The notes beneath the pieces were generated by a model. That model saw only the letters and a program-made list of their open reading frames with translations, was not told the origin of the DNA and made no database searches. This document shows positions 40,269 to 41,750 of a stretch of DNA of 64,000 bases, piece by piece. Location: the NCBI RefSeq assembly GCF_013122565.1, contig NZ_CP053258.1. The stretch is one strand, 5' to 3'. The stretch's first letter is position 1, and each line of letters begins with the position of its first letter. The position numbers and the translations under genes are program-made. The DNA comes from Escherichia coli. Lineage in GTDB: Bacteria > Pseudomonadota > Gammaproteobacteria > Enterobacterales > Enterobacteriaceae.

Positions 40269-41750
40269 CTATGCTAATCCCAGGCGTTGGAACTGCTCTG
40301 GCGGCGCATCATTGTCTTTCATCAACTGAATCAGCAACGCGATCATCCGGGCCTCGATCGCATCATCATGAATCGGATGCAGCTGCTGCGGATCGTTTTG
40401 CAGATCAAACAGCAAATGACCAAACTGATTCAGCCCCTTATATTTCTCCTGTGCCGGGATGCGTAACACCTGCAACCCTTTGGTGAAACGAAACGGTGGA
40501 GCTAGCGATAAAGCCCGCATCTCATCCACCTGATAGCGGCTGTTCATTTTGCAAGCCATTAATGTGTAATTAGCAATATCATCCTCACGCCCTGGCAGCG
40601 CGGCTCGCATATACACATAACGCCCATCGGTTACGTTGACATGACCACTGAAGACACCAAACATCGCCGCACTGCGTACCGGTTCATCGTGGCTGACCGT
40701 TTTCGCCAGCGGTTGCCCCTGCACATCGGGCGGCACCGGCTGCTGAAAAAAGTCATACAACGTAGGCGCCCAGTCGATCATCTGCACCAGCGCCTGACGC
40801 CGTTCGCCTTTTACACCGCTGCGCGGATCCCAGATAAACAGCGGGTTATTCGCCACCTCGTTGTAATAAGGCATCTGGTTTTTCGCCCACCAGCCATGCT
40901 CACCGAGCAAAAAACCGTGGTCGGTGCCGACAATCAGCATGGTGTCTCGCCACAGATCGTGCGCATCCATCAGGTCGAGAATGCGCCCCAGGTTGCGATC
41001 GCACATCGACACCAGCGAGCGATAGCGGCAGCGAATATGCTCCACGGCCTCGTCGCTTTCCTGCACCCGACCACGCGGCCAGTCATAATGCGGCCCGTTC
41101 CAGTCATCCTCATACAACGAAAGGTACTCTTGCGTTGTGTGAAACGGCTCGTGCGGATCAAACGTTTCGATCTGCAATAACCAGTTATCTTGCGCGTGGT
41201 TTTTGTGGATAAAAGCACAACCCGCATCAAAGACTTTGGTTTGTGGAAAATCCGCTTCCTGCTGAATATATTCCCGGTTGGCCCAGTCATGACGCCACAG
41301 GCCAGAAACACCGCCGCCGGTCTGCTTTTGCGGCACCCGTAGCACCTCAGGAATAGGCGGTTGCGCAACGCTTGCCTGCCAGTGATCGCCCTCCTGACCG
41401 CGCACAATTTCCCATGAACTATAGCGATTATGGTAATTTCCGCCGCCATCTTCCCAATAATGCAAATGATCGCTTATCAGGTGGGTATAGATCCCCGCCT
41501 TTTTAAGCAGCTCCGGCATGGAGTCGTCAAACGGTTCTAACGGCCCCCACTCCCGGTGCAGGAAGTTACATCGCCCGGTATGCAGCTCCCGCCGGGCGGG
41601 CATACAGGGCATACTTCCGACGTAACTGTTTTCAAAGGTGGCGGCATGTGCCGCCAGGCGCTGGAAATTCGCTGCTTTTGTCAATAAATCGCCATACGGG
41701 GGTAAATATCTTTTGTTCAGACTATCGAACAGGATAATAATGGCTTTCAT
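40269..41750 (-). CDS. Sulfatase (alkaline-phosphatase superfamily, Cys-type), 493 aa, no signal peptide
   Basis: Formylglycine signature C-M-P-A-R-R-E-L-H-T-G-R at residues 49-60 (nt ~41571-41606); N-terminus IIILFDSLNKR typical of sulfatases. Confidence 0.85.
   Translation of the reverse strand: MKAIIILFDSLNKRYLPPYGDLLTKAANFQRLAAHAATFENSYVGSMPCMPARRELHTGRCNFLHREWGPLEPFDDSMPELLKKAGIYTHLISDHLHYWEDGGGNYHNRYSSWEIVRGQEGDHWQASVAQPPIPEVLRVPQKQTGGGVSGLWRHDWANREYIQQEADFPQTKVFDAGCAFIHKNHAQDNWLLQIETFDPHEPFHTTQEYLSLYEDDWNGPHYDWPRGRVQESDEAVEHIRCRYRSLVSMCDRNLGRILDLMDAHDLWRDTMLIVGTDHGFLLGEHGWWAKNQMPYYNEVANNPLFIWDPRSGVKGERRQALVQMIDWAPTLYDFFQQPVPPDVQGQPLAKTVSHDEPVRSAAMFGVFSGHVNVTDGRYVYMRAALPGREDDIANYTLMACKMNSRYQVDEMRALSLAPPFRFTKGLQVLRIPAQEKYKGLNQFGHLLFDLQNDPQQLHPIHDDAIEARMIALLIQLMKDNDAPPEQFQRLGLA

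Follow-up and report, generated by a model that had tools for sequence, protein, structure and literature searches.

Sulfatases of the S1 family that carry no leader and depend on formylglycine form a known class. AtsA of Pseudomonas aeruginosa and BetC of rhizobia are cytoplasmic enzymes of this class, which share the C-x-P-x-R motif and act on small sulfate esters that have been imported. In Escherichia coli, the pairs AslA-AslB, YdeN-YdeM and YidJ-YidF each join an S1 sulfatase with a homologue of the radical S-adenosylmethionine (SAM) maturases; AslA is annotated as a putative sulfatase beside aslB, and AslA and YdeN are exported. Here we consider a sulfatase gene located in a 64-kb stretch of an E. 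coli chromosome (contig NZ_CP053258.1; the window), a segment that also carries artPIQMJ, rlmC, ybjO and potIHGF. The open reading frame (ORF; 40269..41750, minus strand, 493 amino acids) is the last gene of a minus-strand operon in which genes for components IIC and IIB of a phosphotransferase system (PTS) come first. The protein is only distantly related to AtsA and BetC, which have other substrates and transporters and no link to a PTS, and, unlike the E. coli pairs, it has no anaerobic sulfatase-maturating enzyme (anSME) gene adjoining it; anSMEs encoded next to its relatives in other taxa share 41-49% identity with AslB. We consider it highly probable that the gene encodes a cytoplasmic formylglycine sulfatase that works with an ascorbate-type PTS. 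The fuller explanation, according to which such a sulfatase and an ascorbate-family PTS would together bring L-ascorbate 2-sulfate into the Ula route, has in our judgement about an even chance of being right. A pneumococcal island in which a PTS of another family stands with a putative intracellular sulfatase, a sulfatase-modifying factor and a TauE-family gene has already been described (PMC3283741). Because cytoplasmic formylglycine sulfatases and this island are known, a leaderless Cys-type sulfatase is unsurprising by itself, and the finding in the form in which the earlier note on this DNA stated it is ordinary.

Residues 49-60 of the protein are CMPARRELHTGR (C-M-P-A-R-R-E-L-H-T-G-R), and they are encoded exactly by nucleotides 41571..41606 of the minus strand, where the codon of Cys49 occupies 41604-41606 and residue 60 ends at 41571; C49-x-P51-x-R53 is followed by T58-G59. 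The C-x-P-x-R core occurs a single time in the 493 residues. In HMMER alignments, C49-M-P-A-R53 coincides with the nucleophile of S1 sulfatases and phosphonate monoester hydrolases (PMHs) of known structure. A set of 48 diverse full-length homologues (29-86% identity) shows no variation at P51 and R53, and 45 of them retain C49. Owing to this position in the alignments and to its conservation in homologues, the core is read as a homologous catalytic motif and not as a chance match. The value of 45/48 is the unbiased one, as the frequency of Cys among 93 family genes is inflated by retrieval of those loci with a Cys-containing pattern. The longer PROSITE sulfatase signatures appear to be missing from the protein, which fits the minimal core alone. 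The motif had been proposed in the earlier note, and its presence and coordinates are confirmed; a mutated active-site motif, the outcome that would have spoken against it, was looked for in the same HMMER alignments and 48 homologues and is rejected, the core being intact and aligned to the nucleophile of the solved enzymes.

The predicted catalytic set consists of D9, C49, R53, H200, D277, H278 and K290, all of which vary little or not at all within the family and are matched in the alignments by metal-binding and catalytic residues of RlPMH and SpAS. The metal ligands D9, D277 and H278 are invariant in the family alignment, and their RlPMH counterparts are D12, D324 and H325. A further invariant motif, D94-H95-x-H97 (codons 94-97, positions 41460-41471), is specific to the family and may form a second metal site or take part in substrate binding. 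Three distant homologues, P0191, P0208 and P0253 (31-34% identical), have Thr where the nucleophile Cys would be (T-x-P-x-R) and may represent an offshoot that does without formylglycine.

The fold agrees with the motif. PF00884 matches residues 4-334 (9.7e-28) and PF16347 matches as well, and no equivalog model of NCBIfam is reached by the protein. The AlphaFold model, built on the 48 homologues, has a mean predicted local distance difference test score (pLDDT) of 94.9, and the top 50 matches found with Foldseek in the PDB are all S1 sulfatases or PMHs at a probability of 1.0, the best of them with 15-19% identity and a TM-score of about 0.65. The profile of the family scores best against SpAS1 (4upi), SpAS2 (4upl), RlPMH (2vqr) and BcPMH (2w8s), with E values from 1e-48 to 1e-50. 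The fold, the nucleophile motif and the metal ligands that can be tested in an S1 formylglycine sulfatase are thus all found in the predicted protein. With the SpAS/PMH clade it shares the P-C-x-P-A-R motif, the alignment of H200, D277, H278 and K290 with PMH residues, and a start that contains a single Asp (MNILFIMFDQLRWDYLSCYG in the SpAS chains, MKAIIILFDSLNKRYLPPYG in the E. coli protein); formylglycine dependence is ascribed to both. Three differences set it apart from that clade: residues 93-152 remain unaligned, the invariant W68, D94-H95-x-H97 and R117-G118 are peculiar to the family, and the PTS context occurs only in the family of the E. coli protein. The PMH pocket residue N78 aligns with P70, and the segment expected to hold the PMH residues Y105 and T107 lies outside the profile alignments. 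Choline sulfatase aligns over residues 4-387. The family is large, with 469 representative clusters at E < 1e-30, and has members in Firmicutes, Actinobacteria, Chloroflexi, Planctomycetes, Burkholderia, rhizobia and Enterobacteria, at 53-68% identity with the protein from E. coli; the names given to its members at source are all generic ('sulfatase', 'arylsulfatase A-like enzyme').

The start of the gene leaves little room for export. Translation across the start gives ...IKN*KG*A-MKAIIILFDSL, so that an in-frame stop precedes the ATG by two codons, and the stop of the IIB gene lies 12 nt upstream of the same ATG; the 12-nt spacer (41751..41762, minus strand) contains, besides the in-frame stop, AAGGGA, which by eye is a putative ribosome-binding site. 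The PF00884 match begins at residue 4 with profile position 4. The first beta-strand begins at residue 2 and bears the metal ligand D9, and in the AlphaFold model residues 2-9 form the core strand beta-1 with a pLDDT of about 97. Because of the in-frame stop on one side and this strand with D9 on the other, there would be no space for a signal peptide, and a leader that begins at an alternative upstream start is rejected for the same stop. All 48 diverse homologues are leaderless and show M-K-x-I-x-x-L-x-D-S-L-N within their first few residues, and among 93 distinct family genes the median length by which the N-terminus could at most be extended in frame is 0 amino acids. No twin-arginine motif is visible in the N-terminus. 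In two protein clusters (P0057, P0097) the sulfatase is fused to a C-terminal PTS IIA, which is a cytoplasmic domain. Judged by its predicted N-terminus, the enzyme is not of an exported type (general secretory or twin-arginine). The earlier note had claimed the absence of a signal peptide and a cytoplasmic location; the former holds, and the latter is strongly supported by the closed start, the leaderless homologues and the IIA fusions.

The same can be said of the link to a PTS-imported substrate, with which the earlier note had found a cytoplasmic enzyme to agree. Metagenome contigs were searched for the DNA pattern of a peptide that marks the IIC subfamily, so that the sulfatase did not serve as bait, and a sulfatase gene was found downstream of IIC in 55 of the 57 loci (matches with at least 700 nt downstream), which supports the link strongly. 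Outside the Enterobacteria the usual order is regulator (DeoR or SorC type), IIC, IIB, sulfatase, IIA. The PTS-type loci form 36 lineage groups, 25 of them with at least 5 kb of flank, many metagenome flanks being short, and IIA is present in 15 lineage groups of relatives. The IIC gene of the window (42105..43448, minus strand, 447 amino acids) encodes a UlaA paralogue of the ascorbate/galactitol superfamily (PF03611, 2.8e-97) with 39% identity to E. coli UlaA. Its score with NCBIfam NF009550 is 964 bits against a cutoff of 583, and by its model scores it is not a UlaA equivalog and belongs to the separate subfamily NF009550. The IIB gene (41763..42083, minus strand, 106 amino acids) encodes a protein of the ascorbate/lactose type (PF02302, 1.5e-10) with a VCGYGVGSS motif around Cys11; it has weak NCBIfam matches to ascorbate IIB and 28% identity to E. 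coli UlaB.

Among described PTS-sulfatase combinations the pneumococcal island comes close, also in the pairing with a TauE gene that is seen in three relatives (L096, L117 and L146). It differs in having a lactose/cellobiose-type PTS and not an ascorbate-type one, and the two are likened by gene content alone (PMC3283741). On the gut-anaerobe contig of L096 there is a second, different sulfatase (L096:1805-3169, 454 amino acids), which stands beside a mannose-type PTS and a GntR regulator and shares the nearby anSME and TauE genes with the module. PTS-coupled sulfatases may be a wider theme.

If Cys49 is the nucleophile, it would have to be converted to formylglycine inside the cell. Neighbouring genes were clustered at 84 genome loci; several neighbour clusters proved to be spurious antisense readings of IIC, DeoR or sulfatase genes and were left out. 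A gene for the oxygen-dependent formylglycine-generating enzyme (FGE; PF03781, 3.3e-87) immediately adjoins the family member in 20 of the 84 loci and a radical-SAM/SPASM anSME (33-49% identity to E. coli AslB) in 12, and one or the other maturase is found beside family members in about 35 loci overall. Because of these neighbours, dependence on formylglycine, and with it the predicted need of Cys49 for a dedicated cytoplasmic maturase, is well supported. About half of the family pairs with FGE and not with anSME. Among PTS-linked relatives, Neobacillus niacini has an adjoining FGE gene, and the gut-type loci L096, L098 and L146 have an adjoining anSME gene; the nearest relative found outside the enteric bacteria comes from one of these three loci. 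Counted by lineage, 4 PTS groups have an anSME, and the Enterobacterales-like group is among these. In four Enterobacterales-like metagenome loci, whose IIC is about 90% identical to that of the window, an AslB-like anSME (41-45% identity) lies 1-2.8 kb upstream of IIC, and one of these loci also has two DUF202 genes, an arrangement that resembles the order yidH-yidG-yidF of E. coli.

Which enzyme would serve the protein in E. coli is a separate question. A maturase within the window is rejected, as FGE, anSME and AslB queries gave chance matches only in tblastn against the 64 kb (E > 0.4). One explanation is that a radical-SAM anSME of the AslB/YdeM type, encoded elsewhere on the E. coli chromosome, is the specific maturase of Cys49. 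The AslB-like genes near the module in the four Enterobacterales-like loci, one of them with the yidHGF-like arrangement, argue for this, and so do the anSME genes that adjoin the PTS loci of gut anaerobes and the presence of aslB in K-12. On the other side stands the absence of any anSME or FGE gene from the window, and a 2007 study with aslB and ydeM deletion mutants in its title is said by those who cite it to have argued for a third system. According to the literature, E. coli converts Cys-type sulfatases only, by machinery that has been called elusive, and is suspected to have a third system besides AslB and YdeM (PMC6189696, PMC8379841). The degree of conversion in E. coli varies by enzyme: P. 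aeruginosa AtsA made there reached 95% formylglycine, while two heterologous C-x-P-A-R enzymes showed 0% or partial conversion without a co-expressed maturase (table in PMC6189696), and the latter result is in favour of a specific maturase. Taking both sides together, we regard an AslB/YdeM-type enzyme as a possible but rather doubtful candidate. The earlier claim that a cytoplasmic maturase of this type is needed is therefore upheld in part: dependence on a maturase is supported by comparison, AslB or YdeM is a candidate for this task in E. coli, and half of the family pairs with FGE.

The gene neighbourhoods of relatives also bear on the substrate. The neighbours that recur in the PTS-type lineage groups are regulators, IIA, ulaG (6 groups), ulaF (5), ulaE (4), transketolase (5), anSME (4) and a TauE-family exporter (3), and ula genes are present in 7 of the 25 groups whose flanks reach 5 kb or more. 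In the PTS-type groups no catabolic family other than ula and transketolase recurs beside the module. The UlaG neighbours have 55-73% identity to E. coli UlaG and reach 663 bits with the lactonase model NF008688 (cutoff 306), by which they are rated as true orthologues. In L005, L010, L011 and L012, UlaG is accompanied by UlaE, UlaF and once UlaD in or beside the module, and the sulfatase-linked IIC is the sole IIC that tblastn detects there. The order in Clostridium L012 is ulaG, IIA, IIC, IIB, sulfatase, a 345-amino-acid gene, ulaF and ulaE, and in Bacillus sp. SD088 the module and a set of ulaR-, ulaC-, ulaG-, ulaD-, ulaE- and ulaF-like genes are divergently oriented. A survey from 2011 noted a sulfatase gene 'inserted' in the ula regulon of Sebaldella (PMC3219644). 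The window itself contains neither a cognate IIA gene nor ula catabolic genes; in K-12, ulaC, ulaG and ulaDEF are found at other chromosomal places. Four loci encode, beside ula genes, a conserved protein of about 345 amino acids (L012:6290-7327, L011:12454-13512, L002:1-470 and L010:31-270). It has no Pfam or NCBIfam match, and UlaD was not detected in those loci; the protein may be a non-orthologous replacement of the UlaD decarboxylase.

The substrate pocket of IIC was compared by means of the 11 listed contacts between ascorbate and the UlaA core domain (PMC6048161). The sulfatase-linked IICs retain Y87, H194, D314 and F362, whereas three contacts are replaced conservatively (T86S/P, I358V/I/T, M410M/I). 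Four others are made smaller throughout (H135N, I136T/A/S, Q139S/A, Q195N), and a conserved Lys or Arg is located four residues past Y87. Together, these features would suit a substrate with an ascorbate-like scaffold and an additional anionic group. The system resembles E. coli UlaABC in the types of IIC, IIB and IIA, in most of the ascorbate contacts and in the position of the relatives' module inside or beside real ula operons; it differs in the IIC subfamily (NF009550), in the lack of IIA from the enteric copies and in the extra sulfatase.

In the mechanism that we propose, IIC and IIB would import a sulfated ascorbate-like substrate and phosphorylate it, with a IIA supplied from elsewhere, for which UlaC would be the obvious candidate. 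The sulfatase, with the fold, catalytic residues and maturase linkage described above and with Cys49 matured by an enzyme encoded outside the window, would then remove the sulfate inside the cell. L-ascorbate 2-sulfate would in this way become ascorbate-2-sulfate 6-phosphate and then L-ascorbate 6-phosphate, which UlaG, UlaD, UlaE and UlaF would convert to D-xylulose 5-phosphate. L-ascorbate 2-sulfate is proposed because it is a common animal metabolite (widely reported in the metabolomics papers of our literature search), has a free 6-OH group and is hydrolysed by mammalian arylsulfatases. As the chain of steps is read from gene context, this choice of substrate is put forward tentatively, as plausible but short of probable. 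Exporter genes beside the module, namely TauE in 3 groups and two genes of the chromate-transporter family in L098, are consistent with disposal of the released sulfate. That the module is a bacterial salvage route for L-ascorbate 2-sulfate not described before, and that the sulfatase of E. coli and Salmonella is a native cytoplasmic client of the Cys-to-formylglycine system, is, taken as one claim, conceivable but somewhat doubtful.

Several observations weigh against this proposal, and each group of them leads to an alternative. The first group concerns the substrate. In 18 of the 25 lineage groups with enough flank there are no nearby ula genes, and the window IIC remains below the ascorbate-specific cutoffs (NF006919, 320.7 vs 380; NF007094, 355.8 vs 687). 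A literature search for bacterial use of ascorbate 2-sulfate found no paper, and a wider one on ascorbate sulfate yielded metabolomics papers only. Members of the family outside the PTS subfamily occur with GH3 glycosidases and with ATP-binding cassette (ABC) or major facilitator superfamily (MFS) transporters, and specificity for ascorbate therefore cannot hold for the entire family. The main rival is therefore a different sulfated substrate: the same architecture could serve another sulfated sugar, sugar acid or polyol, such as monosaccharides of host glycans or plants, and the ula adjacency would be secondary. Besides the missing ula neighbours, this explanation can draw on the divergence of IIC (39% identity to UlaA, scores under the cutoffs, four differing pocket residues), on a locus beside lacto-N-biose genes, on the pairing of non-PTS relatives with GH3 and sugar ABC transporters, and on the pneumococcal example of sulfatases with other PTS families (PMC3283741). 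It has to be set against the lack of any recurrent catabolic family beyond ula and transketolase, the retention of most UlaA ascorbate contacts, and the location of the L012 sulfatase within a ula operon, between IIB and ulaF. On balance we consider another substrate unlikely, although it is the alternative to be taken most seriously. Glucosinolates or sulfated beta-glucosides, suggested by the GH3 genes near non-PTS relatives, were not adopted, as GH3 is never near the PTS subfamily.

The second group concerns the reaction. The nearest solved relatives are promiscuous arylsulfatases/phosphonate-monoester hydrolases and only 15-19% identical. Moreover, only one pairwise alignment extends over the G-K-W-H motif of classic sulfatases, and there the lysine of the motif is paired with the invariant D94; the profile alignments to solved structures do not reach this part. 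Of the residues that bind sulfate in classic sulfatases (two Lys and two His), H200 and K290 are conserved, whereas the G-K-W-H lysine position is, by that one alignment, D94. The enzyme could then be not a sulfatase in vivo but a formylglycine-dependent phosphoester hydrolase with a phosphodiester, phosphonate monoester or phosphate monoester as its substrate, acting for example on a phosphorylated PTS product. PMHs are among the closest solved structures in the profile search, the classic sulfate-binding Lys is apparently replaced, and 3 of the 48 homologues, all distant, have Thr at the nucleophile position, as is typical of phosphoryl-transfer members of the superfamily. These points are opposed by the conservation of H200 and K290, by SpAS1 and SpAS2, deposited as sulfatases, as the best-scoring structures, by the genes of the TauE sulfite-exporter family and of chromate/sulfate-type transporters beside the module, and by an adjoining arylsulfotransferase gene in Enterobacter and in L166. 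We consider a phosphoester hydrolase very improbable.

The third group concerns the completeness of the locus. The three genes make up an island (40219..43728) that, by comparison with K-12 and Salmonella, fills the artJ-rlmC spacer; K-12 has only repetitive extragenic palindromic (REP)-like repeats at this place. Among 5426 complete E. coli genomes, 566 (about 10%) carry the island, always on the chromosome, and Salmonella has the same island at the same site. There the IIC gene is STM0884, and we guess that the IIB and sulfatase genes are STM0885 and STM0886; a literature search for STM0886 found nothing. Enterobacter hormaechei has the same module at a different genomic place with an arylsulfotransferase gene adjoining. 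A gene for IIA, a regulator or a maturase is found neither in the 64-kb window nor in the Salmonella island. Therefore it can be asked whether the E. coli/Salmonella island is a cryptic or decaying remnant, non-functional without its own IIA, regulator and maturase. All enterobacterial copies examined lack an adjoining IIA or regulator, a minority of complete E. coli genomes carries the island, and there are truncated copies in lineages of enterohaemorrhagic E. coli (EHEC) and an IS1 insertion in IIC of one strain. On the other hand, the ratio of nonsynonymous to synonymous substitution rates (dN/dS) of the sulfatase gene is 0.045-0.076 (versus Salmonella, Enterobacter and another E. coli), which indicates strong purifying selection. 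The three window ORFs are all intact and full length against their models, a block upstream is conserved across three genera, and the sulfatase protein cluster is widespread in Salmonella. We consider a remnant improbable in E. coli and Salmonella.

Leaving this argument aside, decay is visible in some E. coli lineages. One strain has the IS1 in its IIC gene (hit H2, NZ_CP100994.1), and shortened sulfatase products of 323-378 amino acids are common in EHEC-type assemblies (P0045, P0051, P0130).

Within the literature searched, the near-obligate pairing with an ascorbate-type PTS, the IIA fusions and the embedding in ula operons appear to be undescribed, and it is here, more than in the missing leader, that the novelty lies. 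A very large uncharacterised family is involved, which in gut Firmicutes, Coriobacteriia and Enterobacteria is nearly always joined to one subfamily of PTS permeases. If the proposal is true, it would give a function to three genes of Salmonella and of about a tenth of complete E. coli genomes, and gut bacteria would have an added route for using a conjugate of host vitamin C that is circulating and excreted. It would also offer a natural, selectable growth phenotype for screens directed at formylglycine formation in E. coli.

Control of the operon is putatively exerted from the region upstream of IIC (43449..43728, minus strand). E. coli, Salmonella and Enterobacter, in the last of which the module is elsewhere in the genome, have in common a conserved block at about 43561-43626 (CTATTTTTGCAAATCAAATCACAAATAATCA...TTTTGATTACTAC), and it holds TGCAA-N6-TCACA, which is similar to a CRP site with two mismatches. 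Just past the rlmC stop there is a perfect 44-bp palindrome (43636-43679; 20-bp stem, TAACCGTGATCGATCGGTTATTATTAATCGATCGATCACGGTTA), conserved in Salmonella and degenerate in Enterobacter, which could be a terminator or an operator. No promoter was detected upstream of IIC by a simple scan for sigma-70 sites. In a table of results from chromatin immunoprecipitation on microarrays, an entry places a sigma-54 binding site inside STM0884, labelled there as ulaA (PMC3844500). At the border of the island (43729-43740, compared with L099:2600-2650) the last residue of RlmC differs, with …LLVKM here and …LLVKQ in K-12.

In Enterobacterales relatives the module stands beside one of two gene sets (L108:1673-3577, L166:5242-7827, L089:4466-5881). 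The first consists of an AslB-like anSME gene and two DUF202 genes and the second of an arylsulfotransferase gene, and these neighbours suggest a small sulfur-ester island.

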